From Escherichia coli (GTDB lineage: Bacteria > Pseudomonadota > Gammaproteobacteria > Enterobacterales > Enterobacteriaceae): DNA of 64,000 nt. A model generated the notes under the pieces. It saw only the letters and a program-made list of their open reading frames with translations. It made no database searches and was not told the DNA's origin. Positions 4,728 through 39,474 of the stretch are shown here, one piece after another; the first letter of the stretch is position 1; every line of letters begins with the position of its first letter. The stretch lies in the NCBI RefSeq assembly GCF_041886205.1, contig NZ_CP169029.1; one strand, written 5' to 3'. The position numbers and the translations under genes were made by a program.

Positions 4728-4787
4728 CATTACTCACTTATTGCTTTTCAAACAAAATGTCATGCCAGAATTTATGGTTGTAGTGGG

Positions 4788-18593: not shown

Positions 18594-18594
18594 A

Positions 18595-19047: not shown

Positions 19048-19467
19048 TTAAGAGGCTTTTTGTTTTTTCTTTCGTGCTAACTCTTCGTAAATTGCATTGT
19101 ACTTCTGTTTTTTCTCTTCAAGAGTTTTTAAAAGTTCATCTGTCTCACTGTCAGGGAGCTCGTCCAGAAGGTCAATGATGATTTTTTGTCTTGGATTTAA
19201 CTCCTGATAGAAACGTACCTGTCCACTTTCTTCTGTATCCTCTCCCAAAAGATAGGTTGGTGTTGTTCCTATTAGTGTTGCTAATTCCCTTAATTTCTCC
19301 CGGCGAGGAATTGTTTCGCCATTAAACCATTTGCTAACCGCTTTTGGTGTTAATTTCATTCGACGGGCAATTTCTGCCTGCCTTCCATGTTGTTCATAAC
19401 CAGCGTTTTCACAGGCTAGCGCAAGCCTACTGGCGAACTCTTTACGCGCTTTATCTTCATGAACCAT
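19048..19467 (-). CDS. prophage repressor, XRE-family HTH (RacR/DicA-like)
   Basis: 139 aa; HTH QAEIARRMKLTPKAVSKWFNGETIP; divergent from a Cro-like gene. Confidence 0.7.
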   Translation of the reverse strand: MVHEDKARKEFASRLALACENAGYEQHGRQAEIARRMKLTPKAVSKWFNGETIPRREKLRELATLIGTTPTYLLGEDTEESGQVRFYQELNPRQKIIIDLLDELPDSETDELLKTLEEKKQKYNAIYEELARKKKQKAS

Positions 19468-19546
19468 AAGTTCAATGATATTCGCTCTTGAATGTACTGT
19501 CAGTTCTGTTATAGCATGTACTCAAAGTTCACACTGTGAGGGTGAT
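19468..19546. promoter_or_regulatory. divergent immunity promoter/operator region
   Basis: 79-bp intergenic region between repressor and Cro-like gene; direct repeats TGTACT at 19493-19498 and 19517-19522. Confidence 0.4.
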
Positions 19547-19801
19547 ATGAACCAGAAAACACTTGAAGATGTAATCAAAACTGTTCGCGTTGCTGTTGTG
19601 GCCGACGTTTGTGGTGTCAGCCAAAGAGCAATCTATAAATGGATGGATAACGGAAAATTGCCTCGCACAGAATATACCGGCGAAACAAATTACGCTGAAA
19701 AAATCGCTCTTGCATCAAACGGATTATTTTCTGCCGATGCAATTTTAACTATTGGCAGGAATAAAACTACTACGAAAAAGCTGATGGGAGTTGATTCATG
19801 A
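19547..19801 (+). CDS. Cro-like / YdaS-like small DNA-binding protein
   Basis: 84 aa from MNQKTLEDVIKT...; RBS GAGGG; position opposite the repressor. Confidence 0.55.
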   Translation: MNQKTLEDVIKTVRVAVVADVCGVSQRAIYKWMDNGKLPRTEYTGETNYAEKIALASNGLFSADAILTIGRNKTTTKKLMGVDS

Positions 19802-20223
19802 AAATCAAGCATGAACACATCCGCATGGCGATGAATGCCTGGGCGCATCCGGACGGCGAAAAAGTACCGGCTGCGAAAATTACCAAAGCGTATTTCGAGC
19901 TGGGAATGACGTTCCCGGAACTGTATGACGACAGCCATCCGGAAGCCCTGGCTCGCAATACTCAGAAAATTTTCCGCTGGGTGGAGAAAGACACCCCTGA
20001 TGCGGTTAAAAAAATTCAGGCGTTGTTACCAGCTATCGAAAAAGCAATGCCACCTCTGCTGGTGGCCCGAATGCGCAGTCATAGCTCAGCCTATTTTCGG
20101 GAACTAGTGGAGACGCGGGAACGACTGGTGAGAGACGCTGATGATTTTGTCGCAGTGGCGATCGCTGGTTTCAACCAGATGAATCGTGGTGGCCCTGCAG
20201 GAAATATTGTGGTTGTGCATTGA
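19798..20223 (+). CDS. YdaT-like protein
   Basis: 141 aa starting MKIKHEHI..., third gene of a RacR-YdaS-YdaT-type module; overlaps upstream stop. Confidence 0.5.
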   Translation: MKIKHEHIRMAMNAWAHPDGEKVPAAKITKAYFELGMTFPELYDDSHPEALARNTQKIFRWVEKDTPDAVKKIQALLPAIEKAMPPLLVARMRSHSSAYFRELVETRERLVRDADDFVAVAIAGFNQMNRGGPAGNIVVVH

Positions 20224-20288
20224 CTCGCAATATTCATACCGGATCACTTCCGGCAATTTGTGAGTAAAAAGATTCGGTATCAAAAGAG

Positions 20289-21365
20289 GTGAGTATGGCT
20301 AACGCCTGGCTCAGATTATGGCATGACATGCCAAATGACCCTAAGTGGCGAACAATTGCCAGGGTGTCAGGGCAGCCAATTGCAACAGTGATGGCAGTGT
20401 ATATCCACCTCTTGGTGAGCGCGTCACGAAATGTCACGCGAGGTCACATTGATGTCACGACAGAAGATTTGGCAAGTGCGCTCGACGTGACAGAAGAGGT
20501 AATTGATTCAATTTTGCAGACGATGCAGGGGCGGGTACTTGATGGTGATTTAATCACTGGATGGGAAAAACGCCAGGTGCTTAAAGAGGACAACGGCAAT
20601 ATTTCGCAAACCGCAAAATCTCCTGCAGAGCGCAAGAGGGCGCAGCGAGAGAGGGAAAGAAAGCGGGAACAAAATGGCGATTGTCACGGCGCGTCACGAA
20701 ATGTCACGCACATGTCACGACGAGTCACGACAGATAAAGATACAGATAAAGATACAGATCAAGAAGATCAAAACACTATGGTCCATGGCGTAAAAAACGC
20801 CACGAACCAGGCAGGGGATGTTCAGACCGTCAATCTTGGTCAGCCAGCAGGCACGACACCGGAAGCCGATTCAGCGTATGCGCTGAAAGCCGATTCGGGC
20901 GCTGTGCAGCAGGTGATGACCGCAAGGCCGGAGCAATCACACCAACTGCAGCAGCCCGAAGCCGATTCCGCCATTCAGCGGGAAGCCGATCGGGTAGTCC
21001 CGGAAAACACCGGGCAGTCTGTGGGACGAGTGGATTATCCGGATGTGTTCGAACAGGTCTGGCGGGAGTACCCGTTGCGTGCCGGAGCAAACCCGAAGAA
21101 ATCCGCTTTCAGTGCCTGGAAGGCCAGATTACGCGAGGGGGTGCCACCAGAGGCCATGCTGGATGGCGTGAGGCGTTACGCAAGATACTTGGCGGCTACC
21201 GGGAAAACGGGAACGGAATTTGTTCAGCGAGCGACGACGTTTTTTGGACCGGACCGGAATTTTGAGAACTCCTGGTTGCTCCCGGTAAGCGGCACGAACA
21301 ACCAGCGTTGTGTGAATCATATTTCTGAACCGGATAACGAAATTCCGCCGGGCTTCAGGGGGTAA
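20289..21365 (+). CDS. phage replication initiator / replisome organiser, O-like
   Basis: 358 aa; N-terminal WLRLWHDMPNDPKW motif; the coding sequence contains iterons; GTG start with RBS. Confidence 0.6.
   Translation: MSMANAWLRLWHDMPNDPKWRTIARVSGQPIATVMAVYIHLLVSASRNVTRGHIDVTTEDLASALDVTEEVIDSILQTMQGRVLDGDLITGWEKRQVLKEDNGNISQTAKSPAERKRAQRERERKREQNGDCHGASRNVTHMSRRVTTDKDTDKDTDQEDQNTMVHGVKNATNQAGDVQTVNLGQPAGTTPEADSAYALKADSGAVQQVMTARPEQSHQLQQPEADSAIQREADRVVPENTGQSVGRVDYPDVFEQVWREYPLRAGANPKKSAFSAWKARLREGVPPEAMLDGVRRYARYLAATGKTGTEFVQRATTFFGPDRNFENSWLLPVSGTNNQRCVNHISEPDNEIPPGFRG
20423..20765 (+). repeat. putative replication origin: nine GTCAC(G/A) iterons in two clusters plus an AT-rich tandem repeat
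   Basis: Iterons at 20423, 20433, 20443, 20454 and 20683, 20693, 20703, 20714, 20724 (10-11 bp spacing); then GATACAGATAAA x2.5. Confidence 0.5.
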
Positions 21366-21405
21366 GTGTTAATTTCTGGTCATGAGGTAATTTTCAGGAG
21401 GGCTT

Positions 21406-21828
21406 GTGGCAAAAGTTTTTACACAAGAAGAGCGGGAAAAAATTAAAGGGCAGGTTGTTGAACTCGTACGCCAGAGTGGGCGCGAGACGTTAAGACAACT
21501 GGAAACTAAAACTGGGGCAACAAAATATATGATGAACGTTCTGGCCAGAGAGCTGGTTGCCAGTGGCGATGTATACAACTCTGGTTACGGGTTATTCCCG
21601 TCTGAACAGGCGCGTAAGGACTGGCAAAATGCCCGTAAAAAGCTCTCAAGGGCAAAGCTGAAGAAACCATCTGCGGTTGATCCGGACCTTATCTGGTCAT
21701 TACCTGATGGAGAAATACGTCGTTACGACAGGCGTCATAATATGATTTGTACTGAGTGTCGTAAAAGCGAAGTTATGCAGCGCATATTGTCGTTTTATCA
21801 GGGGGATGTTCGGTATTTATTGAAGTGA
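21406..21828 (+). CDS. hypothetical phage protein
   Basis: 140 aa; GTG start 6 nt after AGGAGG; contains C-x2-C. Confidence 0.45.
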   Translation: MAKVFTQEEREKIKGQVVELVRQSGRETLRQLETKTGATKYMMNVLARELVASGDVYNSGYGLFPSEQARKDWQNARKKLSRAKLKKPSAVDPDLIWSLPDGEIRRYDRRHNMICTECRKSEVMQRILSFYQGDVRYLLK

Positions 21829-22223
21829 CGAGATTAAAGTGCATTAGTTCAGATGCAAATTGACATTTTGTGGCACAGGGTAGAGCTAGCGTGGTTGTCC
21901 GCTTTGTGCCAACAGCGGACATTATGGAAGGTCAGAGTTAAAGATTAAAATGGGATGCTGTGTGTTTTCTCCAGGTTTTGCTCTATACCTTTCGGGATAC
22001 TCCACCGACAGAATACGAAAATCAACATTATCAACGGCTCGAAGTGTCTAGATTATCCATGGCAATTCATGGGAAATCCCATCCAACGGCTTATGCTTCA
22101 TGTTGCTTTTTGAGATCGCTTCTAGCATAGCTCCACTCAATAATGTTGTCGGGTCGTTGCTGATCGAAAAGGATACGGGATTCAATACCATTACCTAAAA
22201 AGCTGGTACCGGAACTCGGGCTG

Positions 22224-23228
22224 GTGGTCGTTAAGCCGGGCCGTGAATCCATGCCGGTATTCCACAATACCCGGGTACTGGTGGAGCCGGAACCGAAAAG
22301 CATGCGTAATCTGCCGTCCGGGGTCGTTCCTGCCGTTCGCCAGCCGCTGGTGGAAGACAAAACATTGCTGCCGTTTTTCAGTAACGCACGGGTAATTCGT
22401 GCTGCTGGTGGTGCTGGTGCATTGTCTGACTGGCTGTTGCGCCATATTAAATCCTGCCAGTGGCCACACGGCGATTATCATCACAGCGAAACCGTTATTC
22501 ACCGATATGGTACCGGCGCAATGGTGTTGTGCTGGCACTGCGACAACCAGCTGCGTGACCAGACATCCGAATCACTCGAGCAACTTGCTCATCAAAACCT
22601 GTCAGCATGGATGATTGACGTCATCGGTCACGCAATAAGCGGTACGCAGGAGCGTGAATTATCTCTGGCTGAATTATCCTGGTGGGCGGTCCGCAATCAG
22701 CTGGCGGACGCGCTACCGGAAGCGGTATTACGTCGCTCGCTGGGATTACCAGCGGAAAAAATCTGCTCGGTGTACCGCGAAAGCGACATCGTACCGGGAG
22801 AGCAGACCGCCACCAGCATATTGAAACAGCGCACAAAAAATCTTGCACCGTTGCCTCACGCCCACCAGCAACAAAACCCATCACAGGAAAAGACGGTGGT
22901 AAGCATCACCGTTGATCCAGAGTCTCCGGAATCTTTCATGAAGCTGCCTAAACGTCACCGGTGGGTTAAGGAGAAATACACACGCTGGGTTAAGACACAG
23001 CCGTGTGCTTGCTGCGGTATGCCAGCCGACGATCCGCATCATCTGATTGGTCACGGGCAGGGCGGAATGGGAACCAAAGCACATGATCTCTTTGTTTTGC
23101 CTTTGTGCAGAAAGCATCACGACGAGTTGCATACGGATACCGTGGCATTTGAAGAGAAGTATGGCTCCCAACTGGAGCTGATTTTTCGATTTATCGATCG
23201 CGCGCTGGCAATTGGTGTGCTGGCCTAA
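22224..23228 (+). CDS. DUF968-type protein with C-terminal HNH-like motif (YdfU/NinG-like)
   Basis: 334 aa; C-terminus [21 protein letters not shown]...[10 protein letters not shown]; directly upstream of Q. Confidence 0.6.
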
Positions 23229-23245
23229 TTTTGTGGAGTAAGTTG

Positions 23246-23623
23246 ATGCGTGATATTCAGATGGTTCTTGAGCGTTGGGGGGCATGGGCGGCTAATAATC
23301 ATGAAGATGTGACCTGGTCGTCCATTGCCGCCGGTTTTAAGGGATTAATTCCTTCAAAAGTAAGATCTCGTCCGCAATGCTGTGACGATGACGCGATGAT
23401 CATTTGTGAATGTATGGCTCGCCTGAAAAAAAACAACAGCGATTTACATGATTTATTGGTGGACTATTATGTCGGCGGCATGACTTTTATGGCGCTTGCA
23501 CATAAGCATGGGCGATCTGATTGTTGGGTTGGCAGGATGCTCCAGAAAGCTGAGGGCGTAGTGGAGGGCATGCTGATGGTGTTGGATCTCCGATTGGAGA
23601 TGGATGCTGATTGTTCGAAATAA
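23246..23623 (+). CDS. quuQ: late-gene antiterminator Q
   Basis: 125 aa [24 protein letters not shown]...; recognised from memory as near-identical to the Qin antiterminator. Confidence 0.75.
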
Positions 23624-23635
23624 TTAAAGGAAAAG

Positions 23636-23664
23636 TTGCTGTCTGATTTTCATTAGTCTAACAT
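23636..23664 (+). promoter_or_regulatory. candidate late promoter PR' (-35 TTGCTG, 17-bp spacer, -10 TAACAT)
   Basis: Sigma70-like elements just downstream of Q and upstream of a terminator, the classic PR'/qut/tR' arrangement. Confidence 0.4.
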
Positions 23665-23721
23665 TTTAAATGTTGGAATCGCAACGTAGTTATTATCATA
23701 TAACAGCTTGTTTCCTGATTT

Positions 23722-23750
23722 AGCCAGCCTCCCCAAAGGCTGGTTTTTTT
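23722..23750 (+). terminator. Rho-independent terminator (tR'-like)
   Basis: Stem CCAGCC/GGCTGG with 8-nt loop followed by T7. Confidence 0.6.
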
Positions 23751-23778
23751 CTAATAAGTATCATTTCGGGTGGGGATT

Positions 23779-24303
23779 TTATTGTTTAACCCATAATAGT
23801 TCATTGACATTGAATCCCAACTTTTGAGCGGTACGCACATAGTCTGCTTTTACATTATCTGGAATAGTTTGGGTCCTTGCCAGAATCCATAGGTATTCTC
23901 TGTTCGGACCACTGACAAGAGCATACTTATACTCATCATCCAGTTTGATTACATTATAGCCACCATAGAAGGGGCCAAAAAACGAAACTTTCAACGCTGC
24001 AGTTTTAGTATCTCCAGTAAAGTATGCTTTACCTTCGCTCTCGCTCCATTTGTTTTTCGTTGGATCGTATCCACGGTTAAGTACGCGAATCCCTCCGTCG
24101 TTCCGTTTTTCATAAGTAGCGCTGACCTGTTCCAGACCACGTTCGAACCAGTTCTCGAGGCGAGCTATTTCATACCATTTTCCGAGGTAGCGGTTGGCGT
24201 CAAAATTTGTAATCGGCTGCACACCTTTAGGTGGTGTCGGGGCCTTACATGCTATAAGAGTGAAAGAGAGTGCAATGCCAGTCAACACAGGCCATAACTT
24301 CAT
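23779..24303 (-). CDS. bacterial lipocalin (Blc-like outer-membrane lipoprotein)
   Basis: 174 aa; lipobox LIAC; lipocalin motifs NFDANRYLGKWYEIARL and YKYALVSGPNREYLWILAR. Confidence 0.8.
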   Translation of the reverse strand: MKLWPVLTGIALSFTLIACKAPTPPKGVQPITNFDANRYLGKWYEIARLENWFERGLEQVSATYEKRNDGGIRVLNRGYDPTKNKWSESEGKAYFTGDTKTAALKVSFFGPFYGGYNVIKLDDEYKYALVSGPNREYLWILARTQTIPDNVKADYVRTAQKLGFNVNELLWVKQ

Positions 24304-24495
24304 AATAAATCCTGTACTTTTGATAGTTGAGAGTAAGTATGAAAGATAGATGAGTACGACCGATCACTTAAAGAACTTTCCTACTATATTAGGAATAGTC
24401 AATAACAGAAAAATTGTCAGTGATGAAGCCAGAAAGGCAATTTAGTCCGTGCACTACAAAGTTTATGTGTTAATGAATTAGTCAAGGGGGAGGAA

Positions 24496-25455
24496 ATGAT
24501 AAAAAAACCTGTGATTGGGATCAGCGGTTGTTTGGGCGGTTCTGCTGTTCGTTTTGATGGTGGTCACAAAAGAGATGACTTTTTAATGGACAAATTAGTG
24601 GAATGGGTAACATTCAGACCAGTATGTCCGGAAATGGCTATAGGGCTGCCAGTTCCGCGTCCTGCTCTACGACTTGTGCGCTCGAAGCAAGGAAATATAC
24701 GGATGTGTTTCAGCCACGACCAGAATGAGGATGTGACAGAGAGAATGACAGAGTTTAGTCGTTCTTATATGGACAAATTAAAGGATGTATCGGGGTTTGT
24801 GGTTTGTGCTAAATCTCCCAGCTGTGGCATGGAGCGCGTGCGTGTCTATGATGAAAATGGTAATCGAGGTCGTAAAGATGGAGTGGGACTATTTACGAGC
24901 ACTTTGATGGAAAAGTTTTCCTGGCTACCGGTTGAAGAGGATGGGCGATTACATGATCCAGTGCTTCGTGAGAATTTTATTGAAAGAGTTTTTGCTTTGC
25001 ATGAGCTCAATCACCTTTACAAGGAGAAATTATCAAGAAGAGAGTTATTAGCTTTTCATAGTCGTTATAAGCTTCAGTTGTTGGCGCATAGCCAGGCAGG
25101 CTATAAAGATATGGGACCATTTGTGGCTGCAATACACGAGTGGGCGGACCTTGAATCATACTTTGAGGTGTATCGTGATAATCTGATGGCGATTCTCAGA
25201 AAACCAGCATCACGTAAAAATCACACGAATGTGCTGATGCATATACAGGGGTATTTTAGTAATTACTTAAGTACACGCCAGCGTAAAGAGTTGAGCGAGG
25301 TTATACTTAACTATCGCTTTGGCACATTGCCTCTTCTTGCGCCGTTGACTCTGCTGAAGCATTATCTGGGTGAGTATCCTAATGATTACTTGCTTACACA
25401 GAATTACTTCGATCCCTATCCGGAAGAACTGGCTCTAAGACTGATGGTGAATTAA
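24496..25455 (+). CDS. DUF523-DUF1722 fusion protein (TudS/YbgA-like)
   Basis: 319 aa; N-terminal Cys-containing DUF523-like region (GISGCLGGSAVRFDGG, CPE, SPSCG); C-terminal YbgA-like region. Confidence 0.65.
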   Translation: MIKKPVIGISGCLGGSAVRFDGGHKRDDFLMDKLVEWVTFRPVCPEMAIGLPVPRPALRLVRSKQGNIRMCFSHDQNEDVTERMTEFSRSYMDKLKDVSGFVVCAKSPSCGMERVRVYDENGNRGRKDGVGLFTSTLMEKFSWLPVEEDGRLHDPVLRENFIERVFALHELNHLYKEKLSRRELLAFHSRYKLQLLAHSQAGYKDMGPFVAAIHEWADLESYFEVYRDNLMAILRKPASRKNHTNVLMHIQGYFSNYLSTRQRKELSEVILNYRFGTLPLLAPLTLLKHYLGEYPNDYLLTQNYFDPYPEELALRLMVN

Positions 25456-25852
25456 CTGTATGCGATATCATCTGAAAGTGATGAGTTCCTGTATGCAGGA
25501 TATTTACAATCGTAAAAACTACGCTATGATGCTCATAGTGTCAGTTTTTATAAAAATCCTGTTCACGCTAAAGAAAACATTGAGATGCAATTTAATGTTG
25601 GTAAACATACCAACCCCAAAAGATTTTATTCAATCTGTTTTTATATGAAGATATTTCAAGTGAATATAAAGAGCATATAATATTATTATTGCACGCAGCT
25701 ATTATAATATAACAGATTAGTTTAATGATTTGTTTTTTGTGAGTTAAACACATGGTTTTATAGTTGTGATGCAATGAGATTTTCCTTATTGTTGAACTGG
25801 CGAATATTGATTTTCCACCTATACTTACCTGGTGTAACCCCAATGATATCAG

Positions 25853-26575
25853 GTGGATAATATGTCATACATATGTTCTATCATTTTGGTGTTGAACTCG
25901 TTTGGTGTCCGAATTGGTAAAGAAGATATTTTGTTTAAAAAAGGAAATGCTGTCCTCATTGAATACAATTTAAAAGATCTTTTTTCGTCAAATACAGATC
26001 ATCTAATGATCGTAGATGTTGAGGAGAAAACAGTTAATGATTTCTTTAAAAACTACACACTCTCACCTTTTTCTGTAAGAAGGTTTTATCCGTCATACTT
26101 GATAGTAGAATGTGAAGATTTTTCATTGTTAAAGAACTTGGTTGCATGCTTGAATTGTGATAGCAAAACCGTGGATGTAGTTAGAAATCAAATATCACTT
26201 GCATGTCTTGCTGTCTTATCTTCAGAGAAAATAGTGCAAAGTTTTTTGTTCGGAAGTCTTAATAGCTTAGGTTGTAAAGTTAAGGCTATTATTCACTCGG
26301 ATATCTCAGCGTCATGGAGACTTTGTGATATATCTTCAAGATTATATATGAGCGAGAGTTTGTTAAAAAGAAAATTAAAAGACGAAGGATTATCGTTTAG
26401 TAAATTAATTCTTGAAGAACGAATGATGATGGCGCAAAGATTATTGATCTACAGTAACCATACTGTCGGCAAGGTGGCGGGAATATGCGGGTATGACAAT
26501 GCATCATATTTTGTAAGTGTTTTTAGAGGATATTTTGGTGTGCCTCCGCACCAATATTTATCAAGATTTTCTTAG
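25853..26575 (+). CDS. AraC/XylS-family transcriptional regulator (AppY/YdeO/GadX-like)
   Basis: 240 aa; C-terminal AraC HTH (GICGYDNASYFVSVFRGYFGVPPHQY); AT-rich gene and flanks. Confidence 0.75.
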   Translation: MDNMSYICSIILVLNSFGVRIGKEDILFKKGNAVLIEYNLKDLFSSNTDHLMIVDVEEKTVNDFFKNYTLSPFSVRRFYPSYLIVECEDFSLLKNLVACLNCDSKTVDVVRNQISLACLAVLSSEKIVQSFLFGSLNSLGCKVKAIIHSDISASWRLCDISSRLYMSESLLKRKLKDEGLSFSKLILEERMMMAQRLLIYSNHTVGKVAGICGYDNASYFVSVFRGYFGVPPHQYLSRFS

Positions 26576-26765
26576 AAGATATGATGTGATGGCATTTTAT
26601 AAAGTTATTTTTTGAAGTGTAAGATTATACGATATTTTTAGCTACGCCAGAATAATTGCTGGCGTTTTTCTTTTTGAATAGATGTTCGGGCCTTACGCTA
26701 ATGTAACTTCTTTCCTTCTTCGAACCAAACCGTGTACACCATCCGTTATCTGCGGAGGTGAGGCT

Positions 26766-26981
26766 ATGAAATCCATGGATAAGTTAACAACGGGCATCGC
26801 CTACAGCACCTCTGCAGGCAGTGCTGGCTACTGGTTTTTACAGTTGCTCGATAAAGTCACGCCCTCACAGTGGGCGGCAATAGGTGTATTGGGTAGTCTG
26901 GTATTTGGCATGCTGACGTATCTGACAAATCTTTATTTCAAGATTAAAGAAGACAGGCGTAAGGCTGCGAGAGGAGAGTAA
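26766..26981 (+). CDS. essQ: phage holin
   Basis: 71 aa [29 protein letters not shown]...; one TM segment and charged C-terminus; first gene of lysis cassette. Confidence 0.8.
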
Positions 26982-26985
26982 TCCA

Positions 26986-27297
26986 ATGACTCAAGACTAT
27001 GAACTGGTTGTGAAAGGAGTCCGTAATTTTGAGAATAAAGTTACGGTAACTGTAGCCTTACAGGACAAAGAACGCTTTGACGGTGAAATTTTTGGCCTGG
27101 ATGTCGCCATGGACCGTGTTGAAGGAGCTGCGCTGGAGTTTTATGAGGCAGCAGCCAGAATGAGCGTCCGGCAAGTCTTCCTGGAAGTAGCAGAAAAATT
27201 GTCAGAAAAAGTTGAGTCTTATCTGCAGCATCAGTACTCCTTTAAGATTGAAAATCCTGACAATAAGCACGAGCGTCCTCATCATAAATATCTATGA
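26986..27297 (+). CDS. ydfR: YdfR-like phage protein
   Basis: 103 aa between holin and endolysin. Confidence 0.55.
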   Translation: MTQDYELVVKGVRNFENKVTVTVALQDKERFDGEIFGLDVAMDRVEGAALEFYEAAARMSVRQVFLEVAEKLSEKVESYLQHQYSFKIENPDNKHERPHHKYL

Positions 27298-27823
27298 ACA
27301 CAAAAATCAGATACGGCCTGTCGGCTGCCGTTCTGGCGCTGATTGGTGCTGGCGCATCTGCTCCTCAGATACTTGACCAGTTTCTGGACGAAAAAGAAGG
27401 TAACCACACAATGGCATACCGCGATGGTTCTGGCATATGGACCATCTGTCGGGGTGCCACAGTGGTGGATGGAAAAAACGTTTTTCCCAATATGAAACTG
27501 TCGAAGGAAAAATGCGACCAGGTCAACGCCATTGAGCGTGATAAGGCGCTGGCATGGGTGGAGCGCAATATAAAAGTTCCACTGACCGAGCCACAGAAAG
27601 CCGGTATCGCGTCATTCTGTCCCTATAACATTGGCCCTGGTAAGTGTTTTCCGTCGACGTTTTATAAGCGGCTTAATGCCGGTGATCGTAAAGGCGCATG
27701 CGAGGCGATTCGCTGGTGGATAAAGGACGGTGGACGTGATTGCCGCATTCGTTCAAATAATTGTTACGGTCAGGTTATTCGTCGTGACCAGGAGAGTGCA
27801 TTAACCTGCTGGGGGATAGAACA

Positions 27824-27827
<4 letters not shown>
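27294..27827 (+). CDS. rrrQ: phage endolysin (lysozyme) with N-terminal signal-anchor
   Basis: 177 aa; hydrophobic N-terminus; lysozyme-like core; overlaps neighbours in a lysis cassette. Confidence 0.8.
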
Positions 27828-28320
<493 letters not shown>

Positions 28321-28683
28321 GGTAATATTAAATCGGAACATTTACATCGCGGAATGTAAAATTTAAATAAAAAGGACTCTTCCATGAGCCAAAATTCCTG
28401 AAATCTTAAGGGTAAGATAAAAGGTCTTAATCAGAATGACACGTTATTATTAATAAATAAAGCTATTCTTTCATTGCTGTGTTTTTCTTTACAAAAGTAA
28501 TCCTTGCTATGGGTGGTTAATCATGCGTTAATGGTGTTCTGGTTTGTTACAAATTTATCTGAAGCAGTCATTGTTATAATTTTATTATTTGTACCTCTTG
28601 AGATTTCCTTGTTGGTTTTTCTCTCTGATATTTTTTTTCGGACCATTCTGCCCAAGGGCTAATTTCTTCAAAAGGTAATAATT

Positions 28684-28896
28684 ATGTCTAACAAAATGAC
28701 TGGTTTAGTGAAATGGTTTAACCCTGAAAAAGGTTTTGGTTTCATCACGCCGAAAGATGGCAGCAAAGATGTGTTTGTCCATTTCTCAGCAATTCAGAGC
28801 AACGATTTCAAAACATTAACTGAGAATCAGGAAGTTGAATTTGGTATTGAGAACGGACCTAAAGGTCCTGCCGCTGTTCATGTAGTGGCGCTTTGA
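28684..28896 (+). CDS. cspI: cold-shock protein (CspA family)
   Basis: 70 aa [23 protein letters not shown]...; long upstream leader typical of csp genes. Confidence 0.9.
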
Positions 28897-29167
28897 GGTA
28901 GACAATATTACAAACCATATTCACTTTAGATGCCCGTGTTGTCATGGTTCCCAGTATAGAACATCATCTTTTGATGTTTCTGACATGAATCCTTTCGGGG
29001 CAAAATGTATCTTTTGTAAATCAATGATGATTACATTTGATAATATTTCACAATACTTAAATGCCAGCCGTCTGTCGTTGGATTTAAAAAAGTGAAAATG
29101 AAGGCTCCTTCGGGAGTTTTTTTGCTTGGTATCTATTCGATGGATACTCACATACTACGGTAACATC

Positions 29168-29398
29168 ATGAAAAAAATCATAGTTTTTTTTAACTCTGAA
29201 CCAGCAGTGGTAGTGCCAGCGATGACTGGAGTTAACACCATCATGCGTGAATATCCAAATGGCGAAAAAACACACCTTACTGTAATGGCCGCAGGGTTTC
29301 CATCTCTGACCGGAGATCATAAAGTCATTTATGTAGCAGCGGATCGACATGTAACTTCAGAAGAAATTCTGGAAGCAGCAATGAGACTCTTGAATTGA
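29168..29398 (+). CDS. hypothetical small phage protein
   Basis: 76 aa from MKKIIVFFNSEPAVVV...; the track ORF starts at an upstream TTG. Confidence 0.45.
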   Translation: MKKIIVFFNSEPAVVVPAMTGVNTIMREYPNGEKTHLTVMAAGFPSLTGDHKVIYVAADRHVTSEEILEAAMRLLN

Positions 29399-29570
29399 TT
29401 TGATTCTAATGCATTGATAATAAATGATAATCATCTTTATCTGTTTGTGTGAAATTTAGACCGTCGTATGTTGATTATTGCGATGTTTCATCTTATCTTT
29501 TATACGTTTGCTCCATATAATTGACACTACTGTGTACCAGGACAGTCATAACAGACTAAAAGAGGAAATG

Positions 29571-29744
29571 ATGAACATTGAAGAGTTAAAAACAAAAACA
29601 GAAGCAGATATTTCTGAATATATAACAAAAAAAATCATTGAGCTTAAGAAAAAGACCGGGAAAGAAGTTACCAGTATCCAGTTTACTGCACGGGAAAAAA
29701 TGACTGGTCTTGAAAGCTATGATATCAAGATTGATTTAATCTAG
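29571..29744 (+). CDS. gnsB: GnsA/GnsB-family small protein
   Basis: 57 aa MNIEELKTKTEADISEYITKKIIELKKKTGKEV...; RBS AGAGGAAATG. Confidence 0.75.
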   Translation: MNIEELKTKTEADISEYITKKIIELKKKTGKEVTSIQFTAREKMTGLESYDIKIDLI

Positions 29745-30039
29745 CATGTTTATAGTATTAGCATCAATTTCTCATCAGATGCTATTCAACAATACAAATT
29801 ACCCATAAACCTCGTTTTTACGGGGTTTTGTTATATTTAAACATTACCGAATAGATATAAATCTCGATTGTCGATGGTATTGGTTATGTGACAATACCTA
29901 GTCTTTCCGGTATGCCTGAAGAGAATACAAACGACAGATTATGTAAGGGAAACGCGCTGAAACTTTCACTCTTTCATGCTGAGTGATTTGACGTTATATT
30001 TTTAGCCGCAAGTGAAGAGCAAACGAATGGAGCGACAAA

Positions 30040-30246
30040 ATGCATAAAGATCAATACACTGATGCCCCCTCCCAGGAGCAGGTTCGTGTAAAAACTATGC
30101 TTAATAGCACCATTTCGATGGGTTACCCGGATGTTGTAATTGCATGTATAGAACATCAAGTATCTCTGGAAGCATTCAGGGCAATTGAGGCCGCGTTAGT
30201 AAAGCACGATAAGAATACGAAGGATTATTCCCTGGTGGTTGACTGA
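30040..30246 (+). CDS. hypothetical protein
   Basis: 68 aa with GGAG RBS 11 nt upstream; no recognisable family. Confidence 0.3.
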
Positions 30247-30469
30247 TCACCATAACTGCTAACCATTCTGACCATTTCACAAGTGACAGAGTCAATATCG
30301 TATTCTGTCACTGTAAGGCTAATACAGTACTGCAATTCAACTACAGCAATGCCTCGTATTTAGGTGAATTTACAATATCGTCCAGTTCGGATGCCGGCTG
30401 CATTTCTGAAGATAAGGCATTTCGGTTCGCGTATTTTCCCCTCATGCTCGTCAGTCCTGCGCGTAGTAA

Positions 30470-30838
30470 GAAACACCAAACGGGACGGTTACAGTCACCA
30501 TAAGCGATGATCATAACTTTGACCGTCAAATCATTATTCCGCCCATTATCTTTAACGGAATAGCGTATAGCGATCCGGGAAGTGGTAATAACCCGGGAGG
30601 TACAAGATACACGGGTTATGGTTTTGAAGTTCGCAAAAACGGTGTATTAATCGCATCCAGAGAAACTAAAGGGGCCATTCCCGGTAGCTACAGTGCGGTT
30701 ATTGATATGCCGAGTGGCAGGGGAAGCGTCACTCTGGAGTTTAAGGTTTTCCATAAAGGCAATCAGTGGGCAGGTAATATCACCGACTGTACGGTGATTG
30801 TGACCAAAAAAGCCGCTTCCGGCATCAGTATTCGTTGA
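30470..30838 (+). pseudogene. start-less 3' gene remnant (about 122 codons) ending at a terminator; possibly a tail-gene relic
   Basis: Open frame with no ATG/GTG/TTG for the first ~77 codons; upstream frames suggest a frameshifted longer gene; synteny position upstream of lom. Confidence 0.3.
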
Positions 30839-30859
30839 AATTGTTATAACCCATATAAG

Positions 30860-30883
30860 GGCACCAGAAATGGTGCCTTTTTT
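30860..30883 (+). terminator. Rho-independent terminator
   Basis: Stem GGCACC/GGTGCC, loop AGAAAT, then T6. Confidence 0.55.
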
Positions 30884-30907
30884 ATTGCAGAAAAGCGAGA
30901 GGTAATT

Positions 30908-31507
30908 ATGCGTAAACTTTATGCCGCCATTTTGTCCGCAGCCATTTGTCTGGCCGTATCCGGTGCGCCTGCATGGGCATCTGAACATCAGTCCACGCTG
31001 AGCGCGGGGTATCTTCATGCCTCGACGAACGTTCCCGGCAGCGATGATCTTAACGGGATTAACGTGAAATACCGTTATGAGTTTACGGACACACTGGGGC
31101 TGGTGACGTCATTCAGCTATGCAGGAGACAAGAATCGCCAGCTTACCCGTTACAGCGATACCCGCTGGCATGAAGATTCCGTGCGTAACCGCTGGTTCAG
31201 CGTGATGGTGGGGCCGTCTGTGCGCGTGAATGAATGGTTCAGCGCGTATGCGATGGCGGGTGTGGCTTACAGCCGTGTGTCGACTTTCTCCGGGGATTAT
31301 CTCCGCGTAACTGACAACAAGGGGAAAACGCACGACGTGCTGACCGGAAGTGATGACGGTCGCCACAGCAACACGTCTCTGGCGTGGGGAGCTGGCGTGC
31401 AGTTTAACCCGACCGAATCCGTGGCCATTGATATTGCTTATGAAGGCTCCGGCAGTGGCGACTGGCGCACTGACGGTTTCATCGTGGGTGTCGGTTATAA
31501 GTTCTGA
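30908..31507 (+). CDS. lom: Ail/Lom-family outer-membrane beta-barrel protein
   Basis: 199 aa; signal peptide; alternating beta-strand pattern ending ...GVGYKF; sits before stf as in lambda. Confidence 0.8.
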
Positions 31508-31533
31508 TTAGCCAGGTAACACAGTGTTATGAC

Positions 31534-31560
31534 AGCCCGCCTGTTCAGGCGGGCTTTTTT
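31534..31560 (+). terminator. Rho-independent terminator after lom
   Basis: Stem AGCCCGCC/GGCGGGCT, loop TGTTCA, then T6. Confidence 0.65.
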
Positions 31561-31565
31561 GTGGG

Positions 31566-34043
31566 GTGAATATGGCAGTAAAGATTTCAGGTGTACTGAA
31601 AGACGGCACAGGAAAACCGGTACAGAACTGCACAATCCAGCTGAAAGCAAAACGTAACAGCACCGCGGTGGTGGTGAACACGCTGGCCTCAGAAAATCCG
31701 GATGAAGCCGGGCGTTACAGCATGGACGTTGAGTACGGTCAGTACAGCGTTATTCTGTTGGTGGAAGGATTCCCGCCGTCACATGCCGGGACCATCACCG
31801 TGTATGAAGATTCCCGACCCGGTACGCTGAATGATTTTCTCGGTGCCATGACGGAGGATGATGCCCGTCCGGAGGCTCTGCGACGTTTTGAACTGATGGT
31901 GGAAGAGGTGGCGCGTAACGCGTCCGCAGTGGCACAGAACACGGCAGCCGCGAAGAAGTCAGCCAGTGATGCCAGCACATCTGCCCGTGAGGCGGCAACT
32001 CATACAACCGATGCTGCAGGCTCAGCTCGTGCCGCCAGCACGTCAGCCGGACAGGCTGCATCATCTGCTCAGTCAGCATCTTCCAGCGCAGGAACGGCAT
32101 CAACAAAGGCCAGTGAAGCATCGAAAAGTGCTGCTGCTGCAGAGTCCTCAAAAAGCGCGGCGGCCACCAGTGCCGCTGCGGCGAAAACGTCAGAAACGAA
32201 TGCGGCAGCGTCACAACAATCAGCAGCCACTTCTGCATCCGCCGCGACCACGAAGGCGTCAGAAGCTGCCACCTCAGCCCGGGATGCGGCGGCCTCAAAA
32301 GAGGCGGCAAAATCATCAGAAACGAGCGCAGCCTCGAGCGCCAGTAGTGCAGCCTCCTCGGCAACAGCGGCAGGAAATTCCGCGAAGGCGGCAAAAACGT
32401 CCGAGACGAACGCTAAGTCTTCTGAGACGGCAGCAGCACAGAGTGCCTCCGCAGCAGCAGACTCAAAAACAGCGGCTGCCTCATCTGCCAGCGCCGCGTC
32501 AACAAATGCCGGGCAGGCCTCAGCCAGTGCCACCGCCGCCGGAAAATCGGCAGAAAGTGCTGCATCGTCCGCTTCAACAGCCACAACGAAGGCTGGCGAA
32601 GCCGCTGTACAGGCCAGCGCAGCAGCGAGGTCTGCTTCCGCAGCGAAGACATCCGAGACGAACGCGAAAGCGTCGGAAACCAGCGCAGAATCCTCAAAAA
32701 CGGCTGCCGCATCGTCCGCCAGTTCGGCGGCGTCATCGGCATCATCGGCGTCTGCTTCAAAAGATGAGGCGACCAGACAGGCGTCAGCAGCAAAGGGCAG
32801 CGCCACGACGGCATCCACGAAGGCGACAGAGGCAGCTGGCAGTGCGACGGCGGCAGCTCAGAGCAAAAGTACGGCGGAATCCGCGGCAACGCGCGCCGAG
32901 ACAGCGGCAAAACGGGCAGAGGATATTGCATCCGCCGTGGTGCTTGAGGATGCGAGCACGACGAAAAAGGGGATAACCATGCCACAGGCGAGTTCTGTTG
33001 TTTCAATTACGTTGATTGGTGGTGCGGGATTTAACGTGGGGTCACCTCAACAGGCAGGTATATCTGAACTTGTTTTGCGTGCAGGTAATGGTAATCCGAA
33101 GGGGATTACTGGTGCTTTATGGCAGCGCACATCGACAGGGTTTACAAATTTTGCCTGGGTCAATACATCTGGTGATACTTACGATATTTACGTTGCAATC
33201 GGAAATTATGCGACTGGTGTAAATATTCAATGGGATTATACCAGTAATGCCAGCGTGACGATTCATACGTCACCAGCATATTCTGCTAATAAGCCGGAAG
33301 GGTTAACGGACGGTACAGTTTATTCACTCTATACGCCATCAGAGCAGTTTTATCCGCCTGGCGCACCAATCCCGTGGCCATCAGATACCGTTCCGTCTGG
33401 CTATGCCCTGATGCAGGGGCAGACTTTTGACAAATCTGCATACCCGAAACTTGCAGCCGCTTATCCGTCAGGCGTGATCCCTGATATGCGTGGCTGGACG
33501 ATTAAGGGCAAACCCGCCAGTGGTCGTGCCGTATTGTCTCAGGAACAGGACGGCATTAAATCGCACACCCACAGCGCCAGCGCATCCAGTACGGATTTGG
33601 GGACGAAAAACACATCGTCGTTTGATTACGGAACCAAATCCACGAATAACACCGGGGCGCATACCCATAGTATTAGCGGGACTGCAAATAGTGCCGGTGC
33701 GCACCAACACAAGAGTTCCGGTGCATTTGGTGGCACGAACACGAGCATTTTCCCTAATGGTTATACCGCGATTTCAAATCTAAGCGCGGGGATTATGAGC
33801 ACAACAAGCGGTAGTGGCCAGACTCGTAATGCAGGGAAGACATCATCAGATGGTGCTCATACCCACTCGCTGTCCGGCACTGCTGCAAGCGCAGGCGCAC
33901 ATGCACATACTGTCGGTATTGGTGCTCATACGCACTCCGTTGCGATTGGTTCACATGGACACACCATCACCGTTAACGCTGCTGGTAACGCGGAAAACAC
34001 CGTCAAAAACATCGCATTTAACTATATTGTGAGGCTTGCATAA
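31566..34043 (+). CDS. side tail fibre protein Stf
   Basis: 825 aa; conserved N-terminus [20 protein letters not shown]; long Ala/Ser-rich repeats with KTSETNA units; C-terminal GAHTHS repeats; ATG at 31572 is the likely true start. Confidence 0.85.
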
Positions 34044-34618
34044 TGGCATTCAGAATGAGTGAACAACCACAGACCATAAAAATTTATAATCTGCTGGCCG
34101 GAACTAATGAATTTATTGGTGAAGGTGACGCATATATTCCGCCTCATACAGGTCTGCCAGCAAACAGTACCGATATTGCACCGCCAGATATTCCGGCAGG
34201 CTTCGTGGCTGTTTTCAACAGTGATGAGGCATCGTGGCATCTCGTTGAAGATCATCGGGGAAAAACCGTCTATGACGTGGCTTCCGGCGACGCGTTATTT
34301 ATTTCTGAACTCGGTCCGTTACCGGAAAATGTTACCTGGTTATCGCCGGAAGGGGAGTTTCAGAAGTGGAACGGCACAGCCTGGGTGAAGGATACGGAAG
34401 CAGAAAAACTGTTCCGGATCCGGGAGGCGGAAGAAACAAAAAACAACCTGATGCAGGTAGCCAGTGAGCATATTGCGCCGCTTCAGGATGCTGCAGATCT
34501 GGAAATTGCAACGGAGGAAGAAATCTCGTTGCTGGAAGCATGGAAAAAGTATCGGGTATTGCTGAACCGTGTTGATACGTCAACTGCACAGGATATTGAA
34601 TGGCCAGCACTGCCGTAG
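34043..34618 (+). CDS. tail fibre assembly protein Tfa
   Basis: 191 aa; start overlaps the stf stop; typical Tfa N-terminus ([21 protein letters not shown]). Confidence 0.8.
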
Positions 34619-34715
34619 GGTAAAACATATAAATTCTATAATTAGATGTATCTTTCCATTTACGGCAAGGAAGGGGGCTTGGAACACGTAAAGCATCTCA
34701 CACCGAGATTATTTT

Positions 34716-35306
34716 TTATATGTCAGGTGTCTGAAGTTTTGCTTTGGCTCTTAAAATGGTTTGCCGCGAGGTTTTGAATTCCCGGGCAATGGCACTTATA
34801 CTTACACCTGACTTAATTCGTTCGAATACCACCTGTTTCTGTTCTTCATTTAACACAGGTGGTCGACCAAAACGTTTCCCTGCGCCGCGGGCTCTTACTA
34901 TCCCGGAATGAGTGCGTTCAAGTAAAAGGTCTCGTTCAAATTCAGCGACTGCTGAAATTACTTGCATCATCATTTTTCCTGTTGGACTGGTCAGGTCAAT
35001 GCCACCCAATGCTAAGCAATGCACTCTGATACCTGTTTCGGTCAGTTGTTCCACTGTTTTCCTGATATCCATTGCATTACAACCAAGGCGATCCAGTTTT
35101 GTCACAATCAATTGATCACCACATTTCAGGCGAGCAAGCAACCGGTTAAAACCAGGACGCTCACTGGTTGCTGCTGAGCCGCTAATGTGTTCTTCGATTA
35201 TTTGCTGAGGTTTGATTTTAAAACCTGCACTTTCGATTTCCCGGCGTTGATTTTCGGTGGTCTGATCCAGCGTTGATATCCGACAGTAAGCAAAAATTCG
35301 AGACAT
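34716..35306 (-). CDS. serine recombinase / DNA invertase (Pin/Gin/Hin family)
   Basis: 196 aa [20 protein letters not shown]... with catalytic Ser and C-terminal HTH. Confidence 0.9.
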
Positions 35307-35623
35307 AGTGAGACTCTATTCGAAATTGGTGTTCATATCATAATGCATCTCAGAAAATAATTATGATTATTTTTGTGCATATTTGTATGTACACGTTCGA
35401 AAATAAACGAATGCGTATGCAACCCCGTAATTTTTGGTGAGACCCAAAATCGATTTTGTGAAAAATGGCTTTAACTTGGTTTGTTTTTCGAGTTCCGGGC
35501 GGGCTCAAGGAAGAAGAATAGTGTTGCGTGTTATTTTAACCAGATTTCAAGTTGTTTGGACGTGGAAAAGTGGAGCAAAATGTTGTTAAAGTGGAAAAAT
35601 GATAAAAAAGTAAGTTTATTATA

Positions 35624-35857
35624 TTACATTTTACCATTTAAATTTTGGTTGTCTTTAAGAACTGATATCGCTGTTTGTAATAATTCTTTGTTATCCAGCC
35701 ATGATTTTTTCTTTATGTTTCCTTCAATGTAATCAAGCAATGTTCTGGTATTAATAGGTCTTCCCTGTTTTGCTACTTCCACTACAGCATCCCCTAGGAT
35801 AATTCTTACTTCAGGAAGCTGCGCAGGGAACCACTTAAGGGTGTCTTTTGATTTCAT
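35624..35857 (-). CDS. ydfK: YdfK/YnaE-family small protein
   Basis: 77 aa from MKSKDTLKWFPAQLPEVRIILGD...; last gene before the right junction. Confidence 0.75.
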   Translation of the reverse strand: MKSKDTLKWFPAQLPEVRIILGDAVVEVAKQGRPINTRTLLDYIEGNIKKKSWLDNKELLQTAISVLKDNQNLNGKM

Positions 35858-36642
35858 GAAGATATTCCTTAAAATATTATTGATTTTCATTGCGATATTG
35901 TATGTCTGATTCAGGATATGTTGACTTATACATCGGTTTTGTCTGGGTTATTGGATATGCCAATCCCTAATTTTATTAGGGCATGACTAAAAATGCTGAA
36001 TATGATAAGGAGAGAAGTGATTATCAGTATGCTGTTCATATAGCCTCGAATTAGTAATGTGTTATATATGATATAGTTGACAATTTTTATCTTGGGTGTT
36101 TTTAAAGTTCGTAGATAAACATTGTCGTTTCAGGTATACAGGAATGCTAGCAGGTGGCAGCAAAAATCAGGCGGTTTATGGCGCAAGCTGAAGCGGCAAC
36201 TGCAAACTATCTTATGCAGAGACTCTACACGGATTGGGTTTAAAAGTATACATAGATAACAGTTTTTATCTGAAAAAGAAAAATATCAAGGTGATATAGC
36301 CTATATGCCTTTGATGCGGAGGAATGACTGTGATGGGAGTGATGTATCTGAATAGTTGAAAAAACGCAGACACGCCTTATGCAAGAACGTGCTGCGGTTG
36401 GCTGGTAAATTTTTCGATAGTGTGAGTATTGAATGATTTCCAGCCGTTCTTGATTTTACGCATAAATCCATGAAAAAACTACTTATCTGTTGGGGAGTTT
36501 TTTTGGGGCATATATGGGACAGAAATAGGCCCCAGATAGACACTGAGATCGAACTTAGGATGCTTTTTAAAAAATGCAACTATCTGAAAAAACCTAGAAA
36601 ACGCCAAGGAAACCACAGGATGGGAAAAAACACCTGTGAATT

Positions 36643-37926
36643 ATGGATTTCCAGTTATATTCGCTCGGCGCAGCGTTAGTGTTTCATGAAATATTTTTTC
36701 CTGAATCATCAACGGCAATGGCGTTAATTCTGGCAATGGGAACCTACGGTGCAGGTTATGTGGCGCGTATTGTCGGAGCATTTATTTTCGGCAAAATGGG
36801 CGACAGAATAGGGCGTAAAAAAGTGCTCTTTATTACCATCACCATGATGGGGATCTGTACTACCTTAATTGGTGTGCTGCCGACCTATGCACAAATTGGT
36901 GTTTTTGCACCCATCTTGCTGGTGACGCTGCGTATTATTCAGGGGTTGGGTGCAGGTGCGGAAATTTCCGGTGCCGGTACGATGCTGGCGGAATATGCGC
37001 CAAAAGGTAAGCGCGGAATTATCTCCTCATTTGTGGCTATGGGAACTAACTGCGGAACCTTGAGCGCAACGGCAATCTGGGCCTTTATGTTCTTCATTCT
37101 CAGTAAAGAGGAACTGCTGGCGTGGGGATGGCGTATACCGTTCCTGGCGAGCGTTGTCGTGATGGTCTTTGCTATCTCGTTACGTATGAATCTGAAAGAA
37201 AGCCCGGTCTTTGAGAAGGTTAATGACAGCAACCAACCGACAGCAAAACCTGCACCTGCTGGTAGCATGTTCCAGAGCAAATCCTTCTGGCTGGCAACAG
37301 GGCTGCGTTTTGGTCAGGCGGGTAACTCCGGGTTAATTCAGACTTTCCTTGCAGGCTATTTAGTGCAGACGTTATTGTTTAACAAAGCAATTCCAACAGA
37401 TGCATTGATGATTAGTTCGATTCTCGGCTTTATGACCATTCCGTTCCTTGGTTGGTTATCCGATAAAATTGGTCGCCGGATCCCGTATATTATTATGAAT
37501 ACCTCCGCGATTGTGCTGGCATGGCCAATGCTTTCTATCATCGTAGATAAAAGCTATGCCCCGAGCACCATTATGGTTGCACTGATTGTGATTCATAACT
37601 GTGCGGTGCTGGGATTATTTGCTCTGGAAAACATTACCATGGCAGAAATGTTCGGCTGTAAAAACCGCTTTACCCGGATGGCTATTTCTAAAGAAATTGG
37701 TGGTCTTATCGCTTCCGGTTTTGGTCCTATCCTGGCGGGTATTTTCTGCACCATGACGGAATCCTGGTATCCGATCGCCATTATGATCATGGCATATTCA
37801 GTGATTGGTTTAATCTCTGCGCTGAAAATGCCAGAGGTGAAAGACCGTGATTTAAGTGCGCTGGAAGACGCTGCGGAAGATCAACCGCGTGTTGTAAGAG
37901 CTGCGCAACCTTCCAGAAGTCTGTAA
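36643..37926 (+). pseudogene. ydfJ: 3' portion of ydfJ (MFS transporter), 5'-truncated by the prophage
   Basis: 427 aa MFS protein lacking about the first 30 aa and first TM helix, which are at 12444-12536. Confidence 0.7.
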
Positions 37927-37935
37927 ACCCTCAAT

Positions 37936-37965
37936 CCCTTCTCTTACCGGAGAGGGGATTTTTAT
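37936..37965 (+). terminator. Rho-independent terminator after ydfJ
   Basis: Stem CCCTTCTC/GAGAGGGG with one G-U pair, then ATTTTTATT. Confidence 0.5.
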
Positions 37966-38013
37966 TCATATAACAAAACATGTAGCTTGCATATTTAAAT
38001 TTAAGGAATTGTT

Positions 38014-39474
38014 ATGGGAAATAATTTGTTATCAGCAAAAGCGACGCTCCCTGTTTATGATCGTAATAACCTAGCTCCAAGAATTGTTCATTTAGGCTTT
38101 GGTGCATTTCACCGTGCGCATCAGGGTGTGTATGCCGATATTCTTGCTACGGAACATTTCAGTGACTGGGGATATTATGAGGTCAACTTAATCGGCGGCG
38201 AACAGCAAATTGCCGATTTACAACAGCAAGATAATCTTTATACCGTTGCGGAAATGTCGGCCGATGTGTGGACGGCTCGCGTTGTTGGCGTCGTTAAAAA
38301 AGCCTTGCACGTACAGATAGATGGCTTAGAAACCGTGTTGGCAGCGATGTGTGAACCGCAAATCGCGATTGTCTCTCTGACAATCACCGAAAAAGGGTAT
38401 TTCCACTCTCCGGCGACCGGACAGTTAATGCTCGATCACCCGATGGTAGCTGCCGACGTGCAAAATCCCCACCAGCCGAAAACAGCAACAGGGGTGATTG
38501 TTGAGGCGCTGGCTCGCCGTAAAGCGGCAGGACTTCCCGCATTTACCGTCATGTCATGTGACAACATGCCAGAAAACGGTCATGTTATGCGTGACGTTGT
38601 CACTTCCTACGCACAAGCCGTTGATGTAAAACTGGCACAATGGATCGAAGATAACGTGACTTTCCCATCAACAATGGTGGACCGTATTGTGCCCGCAGTG
38701 ACAGAGGATACGCTGGCGAAAATCGAACAACTTACCGGTGTGCGCGATCCTGCGGGCGTTGCCTGTGAACCTTTCCGCCAGTGGGTAATAGAAGATAACT
38801 TTGTTGCCGGACGTCCGGAATGGGAAAAAGCGGGAGCCGAACTGGTTAGCGATGTGCTGCCTTATGAAGAGATGAAGTTGCGCATGCTCAACGGCAGTCA
38901 TTCATTCCTGGCGTATCTGGGGTATCTTGCAGGATATCAGCACATTAATGACTGTATGGAAGATGAACATTATCGTTATGCGGCGTATGGCTTGATGTTG
39001 CAGGAACAAGCGCCGACGTTGAAAGTGCAGGGCGTTGATTTGCAAGATTACGCTAACCGATTAATTGCACGCTATAGCAACCCGGCGTTACGTCATCGAA
39101 CCTGGCAGATTGCGATGGATGGTAGCCAGAAATTGCCACAGCGGATGTTGGATTCTGTTCGCTGGCATCTGGCGCATGACAGCAAGTTCGATCTGCTGGC
39201 GCTGGGCGTCGCGGGTTGGATGCGTTATGTCAGTGGTGTTGATGAACAGGGAAATCCGATAGAAATCAGTGACCCACTGTTACCTGTTATTCAGAAGGCT
39301 GTACAAAGTAGTGCCGAAGGGAAAGCGCGCGTCCAGTCATTGCTGGCGATTAAGGCGATCTTTGGTGATGATTTGCCAGACAATAGTTTGTTTACTGCAA
39401 GAGTGACGGAAACGTACTTGTCTTTATTAGCGCATGGCGCGAAAGCGACCGTGGCAAAATATTCCGTGAAGTAA
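38014..39474 (+). CDS. ydfI: mannitol-dehydrogenase-family oxidoreductase
   Basis: 486 aa with N-terminal Rossmann motif ([12 protein letters not shown]). Confidence 0.85.

Follow-up and report, generated by a model that had tools for sequence, protein, structure and literature searches.

A 64,000-nucleotide stretch of Escherichia coli DNA (contig NZ_CP169029.1 of assembly GCF_041886205.1; hereafter the window) carries, just upstream of a prophage lom gene, a 122-codon frame that lacks a start codon and is followed by a terminator-like hairpin. The first-pass annotation had read this frame as part of a gene split by a single-base frameshift, possibly the 3' end of a lost tail gene. Three questions follow: which gene the frame belonged to, whether the reading frame running into it from upstream was ever part of the same gene, and how it came to stand alone. 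The reading we favor, with a probability of about 95%, is that a single 18.3-kb deletion in a Qin-type prophage stranded the 3' end of the tail-tip gene J as an inert pseudogene remnant. The prophage lies between rspB and ydfJ, and the features needed to follow the argument are listed by window coordinate:

12574-13869, strand not given: integrase, a part of the prophage in the window
23231-23623, strand not given: antiterminator Q, a part of the prophage in the window
30040-30246, + strand: conserved 68-aa hypothetical protein (ORF; WP_000548593.1 in relatives), the last intact gene before the junction
30243-30469, + strand: left-parent spacer DNA; identity of 100% with many genomes ends at 30475
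30470-30475, no strand: deletion junction with the 6-bp microhomology GAAACA (three-way alignment; one copy here, one at each undeleted breakpoint)
30470-30838, + strand: 3' remnant of J (tail-tip, host-specificity gene), its last 122 codons and the stop (PF12421 match, identity to MB53 J)
30857-30886, + strand: intrinsic terminator-like hairpin and T-run in the J-lom spacer (scan and fold)
30908-31507, + strand: lom, Ail/Lom outer-membrane beta-barrel, an intact 199-aa ORF (WP_001230379.1, identical in wlxctx60 and MB53)
31566-34043, + strand: side tail fibre gene stf, an intact 825-aa ORF
34043-34618, + strand: tfaQ (ORF; sister-genome annotation)
34716-35306, - strand: pinQ invertase (ORF; sister-genome annotation)

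The prophage also includes an exonuclease gene interrupted by an insertion sequence, an HTH repressor-like gene, a DUF968 gene, and lysis genes. Its order onward is cspI, ymcF, ynfR, ynfN, gnsB, the 68-aa ORF, the J remnant, lom, stf, tfaQ, pinQ, ydfK, and ynfT.

Identity and coding state of the 122-codon frame

Translation of the three forward frames yielded the 122-codon frame (ETPNGTVTVTISDDHNFDRQ...AASGISIR, also given as ETPNGTVTVTISDDHNFDRQIIIPPIIFNGIAYSDPGSGNNPGG...VIVTKKAASGISIR), with its TGA stop at 30836-30838. As the first-pass annotation had stated, the frame is start-less: no ATG, GTG, or TTG opens it at its head in the translation of 30470-30838, and two in-frame stops, TAG at 30464-66 and TAA at 30467-69, directly precede it. 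The encoded sequence matched the Pfam family Ig_GpJ_C (PF12421) at 89.2 bits (E 3.3e-25), above the gathering cut-off of 26.2 bits, over profile positions 19-134 of 135. E. coli MB53 has an intact J of 1137 aa, whose residues 1016-1137 agree with the frame at every position (122/122), and the 1165-aa J of MS15047 and phage Ayreon ends in this sequence too. Protein-level identity of 100% extended to the J C-termini of viable phages, among them Ayreon, which was isolated on K-12, ev099, Perceval, and many Stx1a/Stx2c-converting phages. At the nucleotide level, DNA from 30470 onward matched at 401/401 nt in six genomes, all of which annotate the gene as "phage attachment tail tip protein J".

Judged by the domain match and these identities, 30470-30838 is the last 122 codons of a lambdoid J, encoding its Ig-like receptor-binding domain. 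The first-pass annotation had named, as the case that would speak against a tail gene, a small non-structural protein intact at this position in relatives; in intact relatives the 122 residues are instead the very last ones of a J protein 1137-1165 aa long. Its guess at the 3' end of a lost tail gene, made from the lambda order J-lom-stf-tfa, proved sound, the gene being J. The window does not encode a functional J, as it lacks 1015 codons, a start codon, and the N-terminal domains (hub, FNIII, and fibre). In the PGAP annotation of E. coli wlxctx60 (the sister genome described below), the equivalent of 30470-30838 is already labelled a partial tail-tip pseudogene with its N-terminus missing.

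Downstream of the stop codon, the hairpin stem (30857-30880) has the core GGCACCA-GAAA-TGGTGCC, followed by TTTTTT, and forms a 10-pair stem with a GAAA loop. Its predicted fold of -15.6 kcal/mol (z = -3.7) was equalled by 0/200 shuffles, and the G+C-rich hairpin followed by a U-run is the structure expected of a Rho-independent terminator. The first-pass annotation had put a terminator at 30860-30883, essentially where the hairpin and T-run were found. A terminator is predicted at the same place in the annotation of phage Ayreon, and the lambda J-lom spacer has a different hairpin and T-run at the same position. The hairpin is recognizable as the normal predicted terminator of the J-lom intergenic region, identical in intact relatives and not a product of the deletion.

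Because a start codon is missing and two in-frame stops stand directly upstream, we infer that the J remnant is untranslated. It may be transcribed passively, in the same direction as Q-dependent late transcription. The sole in-frame ATG, at 30707, would open a 43-aa ORF, and no Shine-Dalgarno-like sequence was found upstream of it. A consensus scan of the + strand over 29700-31700, a weak method, returned no promoter-like site and hence no support for a lom promoter inside the remnant.

It is highly improbable that the retained piece is functional, whether as a free receptor-binding domain or as the 43-aa ORF, serving as a decoy or exclusion factor, or as a J 3' end carrying signals for lom expression. 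Such a role would suit a remnant that covers nearly the whole Ig_GpJ_C domain, is undecayed, and precedes an intact lom in the direction of late transcription. Against a stand-alone product stand the missing head start codon, the TAG and TAA just upstream, and the bare internal ATG, and the domain would need to act at the outer membrane yet has no signal peptide or export route; the empty promoter scan lends no support to expression signals. The recent date of the deletion, found in 1/5426 genomes, accounts for the lack of decay, and K-12 Qin has lost both J and lom, which argues that retention is not required. A stand-alone product from the remnant is therefore considered very unlikely on its sequence features, and the inert pseudogene remnant is the reading carried forward.

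The deletion junction and the sequences it joins

The origin of the remnant was resolved by aligning the window with a left and a right parent. Identity to the left parent ends at 30475 and identity to the right parent begins at 30470, leaving the hexamer GAAACA common to both. In the undeleted MB53 locus (L005), the window matches positions 1-1713 and then 20001 onward, with GAAACA at 1708-1713 and at 20001-20006. The stretch missing relative to MB53 is 18,293 bp, which is the size in a close proxy of the ancestor, MB53 being 98.2% identical in the left flank and 99.9% in the right. At the same chromosomal locus, MB53 carries cspI-ymcF-ynfN-gnsB-68-aa ORF, the genes from TerS through J, and lom-stf-tfaQ-pinQ-ydfK-ynfT-ydfJ'. 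A second undeleted genome, FDAARGOS_497, has the whole head-tail module down to J-lom-stf at the same ydfJ site and serves well for the left flank; its J receptor-binding domain, lom, and stf belong to another allele, hence the choice of MB53 as comparator.

To the left of the junction, the 68-aa ORF is annotated identically in wlxctx60, FDAARGOS_497, and MB53, and it matched no Pfam family above threshold. In phages of this family, no other gene lies between this ORF (WP_000548593.1) and cos. The spacer that follows (30243-30469) is unannotated in all three relatives, contains no Pfam family, and lies within the interval 29700-30900, where a permissive Rfam scan of 26000-37000 found nothing in either spacer or remnant. 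In intact relatives, the spacer leads on to the cos region and a DUF1441 small-terminase gene. FDAARGOS_497 continues past the equivalent of 30475 with unannotated spacer, the DUF1441 small terminase, large terminase, portal, and a ClpP-protease/capsid fusion onward. To the right, MB53, FDAARGOS_497, and K-12 share with the window the order stf, tfaQ, pinQ (31566-35306) at this chromosomal site. The lom-stf-tfa-pin genes and the predicted terminator make up the right end of the phage that the deletion left in place.

The breakpoints have the features of a microhomology deletion: a short identical sequence at both ends, one copy of which is kept, and no long repeat or insertion sequence. Within flanks of +/-150 bp, no homology or repeat longer than the hexamer was detected, the best local similarity being no better than that of shuffled sequence, and the chance of at least 6 bp of microhomology at a random join is ~0.0013. 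Taken together, the GAAACA copies, the lack of longer homology, and the low chance value point to illegitimate, microhomology-mediated deletion, an assignment drawn from the 6-bp microhomology only. The deletion joined the spacer between the 68-aa gene and the small terminase, ahead of cos, to J codon 1016 at GAAACA, probably by illegitimate, microhomology-mediated recombination or replication slippage and not by site-specific or homologous recombination.

An origin outside the prophage itself, through recombination between two resident lambdoid prophages or through an assembly chimera, is scarcely credible, even though E. coli genomes hold several prophages whose J, lom, and lysis modules are nearly identical (the number of matching places in a genome has a median of 2 and reaches 14) and the flanks differ in identity to MB53 (98.2% against 99.9%). 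At the rspB...ydfJ site, MB53, FDAARGOS_497, and K-12 carry both flanks in the order and orientation seen here, whereas exchange between prophages would delete or invert chromosomal DNA, of which none is seen. A mis-join by an assembler would be expected inside a shared repeat and not at a 6-bp microhomology, and the identical junction recurs in a second, non-identical genome, wlxctx60.

The proposed frameshift is where the first-pass annotation stood only in part. An adjacent upstream frame does read into the 122-codon frame: a second frame is stop-free over 30243-30503 (87 codons) and overlaps its head. The only start candidate in that frame, ATG at 30444, would give 19 aa, and BLASTP of the frame against full-length J found no similarity (best E = 8). 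None of the frames left of 30470 encodes J; this DNA aligns instead with the spacer ahead of cos, so homology to the same gene is not present on both sides. The change of frame falls where the deletion brought two unrelated sequences together and is thus not a frameshift. That the 30243-30503 frame and the 122-codon frame are two halves of one gene broken by a single base can be set aside almost entirely: the overlap of the stop-free stretch with the remnant's head is all that favors it, and against it the upstream frame has no J similarity, Pfam family, start giving more than 19 aa, or annotation in three relatives, and the DNA on either side of 30470-30475 sits 18.3 kb apart in the intact prophage. 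Three-frame translation, BLASTP against J, the Pfam scan, and the three-way alignment all spoke against a single-base frameshift. The stretch should carry the label of a J pseudogene, 3' fragment, at a deletion scar, and not that of a frameshifted gene.

Gene loss, distribution, and the rest of the prophage

Comparison with MB53 also defines what the deletion took. The lost packaging and head genes comprise the small and large terminases, a gpW-like gene, portal, protease/capsid, and head-tail joining genes; the lost tail genes are counterparts of Z, U, V, G, T, H, M, L, K, and I, together with the first 1015 codons of J (89% of the gene). The deletion also took ~320 bp of spacer containing a cosN-like GGGCGGGAGCGT (in lambda GGGCGGCGACCT, with similar flanking context); the window lacks this sequence. 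In MB53 this cosN-like sequence occupies 1851-1862 of the locus, ~175 bp ahead of the small-terminase gene, and its surroundings resemble lambda's ACGGGGCGGCGACCTCGCGG; the assignment as cos is one of resemblance to lambda cosN. Besides the J remnant, stf and tfa are the only head or tail genes left in the window prophage. With cos, terminase, and the head and tail genes gone, the prophage has lost the means to package DNA or build particles. The window and wlxctx60 thus carry a cryptic prophage, lacking genes that MB53 and FDAARGOS_497 carry at the same site. The view of the first-pass annotation that the fragment marks the deletion of the morphogenetic genes was borne out, the fragment lying exactly at the deletion junction.

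Given this precise junction, we scrutinized its occurrence in other genomes. A query of 911 nt spanning the region returned 4862 matching records, of which 1 covered it in full, and the 100% match of the top-ranked records stops at 30475. A 116-nt probe centred on the junction was fully covered in 1/5426 complete E. coli genomes, that of strain wlxctx60 from a Japanese black bear, and the exact 41-nt junction probe TCCTGCGCGTAGTAAGAAACACCAAACGGGACGGTTACAGT had no match in 100,044 species-representative genomes. Over 23138-38910, the window differs from wlxctx60 by 8 substitutions and one gap, and two window segments, 15936-17242 (1.3 kb) and 17600-23137 (5.5 kb), are absent from wlxctx60. Since the scar is common to two differing, independent assemblies, it is not an assembly artefact and is presumably inherited within a small lineage. 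The complete identity of the remnant to functional alleles and the presence of the junction in 1/5426 genomes both suggest that the deletion is recent. Such a rare scar could serve as a lineage marker.

Several further changes to the prophage were observed. Its genuine frameshift is in rzpQ (Rz-like spanin), ~2.5 kb upstream of the remnant and not at the remnant itself: at 27824-28320, a 1-nt deletion in a poly-A run (~27903-27909; A7, compared with A8 in FDAARGOS_497 and K-12) splits the gene into 41-aa and 140-aa ORFs. The exonuclease gene, of the 3'-5' type, is interrupted at 15936-17242 by a 1.3-kb IS3-family insertion sequence, absent from wlxctx60, with ORFs of 108 and 296 aa bearing the domains HTH_Tnp_1 and rve; from its size and ORF lengths we take it to resemble IS629. 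A second large deletion in this prophage lineage, independent of the first, is seen in wlxctx60: this genome lacks 17600-23137, which begins with the repressor-like HTH gene and takes in most of DUF968, and its truncated exonuclease gene is joined directly to the DUF968 stub. The stf gene has a long Ala/Ser/Thr-rich low-complexity repeat region at ~31.9-33.0 kb; its MB53 counterpart is longer and annotated as frameshifted, with indel differences around window positions 32975-33315.

Two Rfam families scored above gathering: the IS009 RNA family (220.9 bits, 34386-34584), inside tfaQ, and the cspA-type thermoregulator 5' UTR (112.8 bits, 28538-28923), over the leader and coding sequence of cspI. 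Elsewhere in the window, a RelE/ParE toxin and HTH antitoxin pair lies between marC and marR at ~50030-50620 (converted from positions 2137979-2138573 of the wlxctx60 record), and a gene for an InsQ/TnpB RNA-guided endonuclease leaves the right end of the window at ~62890-64000 (converted from 2124502-2125710 of that record).

Comparison with lambda J, the REL606 relict, and K-12 Qin

The feature is ordinary prophage decay, and it is already so labelled in public annotation; what is new is confined to where exactly the breakpoints lie, the microhomology of 6 bp, the 18.3-kb length of the deletion, and how rare the allele is. Its closest structural counterpart is the C-terminal receptor-binding domain of lambdoid gpJ (PF12421; lambda structures 8IYK and 8XCJ/8XCK), of which the remnant is the same domain with the same lom-stf-tfa genes downstream. 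The remnant matched the gpJ chains of solved lambda tail-tip structures (8iyk_J, residues 1015-1131; 8xcj_Z; 9wca_J) and aligned to lambda J 1015-1131 with 45 identities in 125 columns (~36% identity). At its C-terminus, gpJ has a receptor-binding domain of the Ig-like type, which contacts LamB through its bottom loops (PMC11101478). The allele of the remnant is of a different type from lambda's LamB-binding one. Relative to a full J, it keeps 122 of ~1137-1165 codons and has lost the hub, FNIII, helical shaft, and beta-prism fibre.

E. coli B REL606 likewise retains a J-like relict in its chromosome, ECB_00512, which was shown to recombine with infecting lambda, changing the phage's J allele and raising its fitness (bioRxiv 10.1101/2020.11.02.365361). 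Uptake of DNA from defective prophages by temperate phages is described in PMC3945230. By analogy, the receptor-binding cassette here, 100% identical to alleles of active phages and with an intact lom-stf-tfa on its right, might act as a chromosomal reservoir of receptor specificity, copied through recombination by infecting lambdoid phages; that it does so, or that the J 3' end is kept for lom-expression signals, is unlikely, and the sequence points to neither. If the former were true, related phages could in principle pick up an intact receptor-binding cassette. Unlike ECB_00512, for which recombination was shown, the present case is known from sequence alone, and any exchange would have 369 nt of J on its left and lom and stf homology on its right.

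The nearest parallel for the prophage as a whole is K-12 Qin, which occupies the same rspB...ydfJ site, likewise lacks the head and tail genes, and retains the same modules (essQ/ydfR/rrrQ/rzpQ, cspI, ynfN, gnsB, and stf/tfaQ/pinQ/ydfK/ynfT). The deletions themselves differ. In K-12 MG1655 Qin, nohA, a Nu1-like small-terminase gene, is joined to the middle of stfQ (positions 3886-5368 of the extracted locus, L010), and J and lom are wholly gone. Here, the deletion begins upstream of the small-terminase gene and ends inside J, and lom and a full-length stf are kept; the packaging-proximal genes differ too, being ynfO/ydfO in K-12 Qin and the 68-aa ORF here. On these differing breakpoints, loss of the morphogenetic module at this locus arose at least twice, independently. 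The window thereby offers, base by base, a single 18.3-kb deletion that locked a Qin-type prophage into the chromosome in an event separate from that of K-12.
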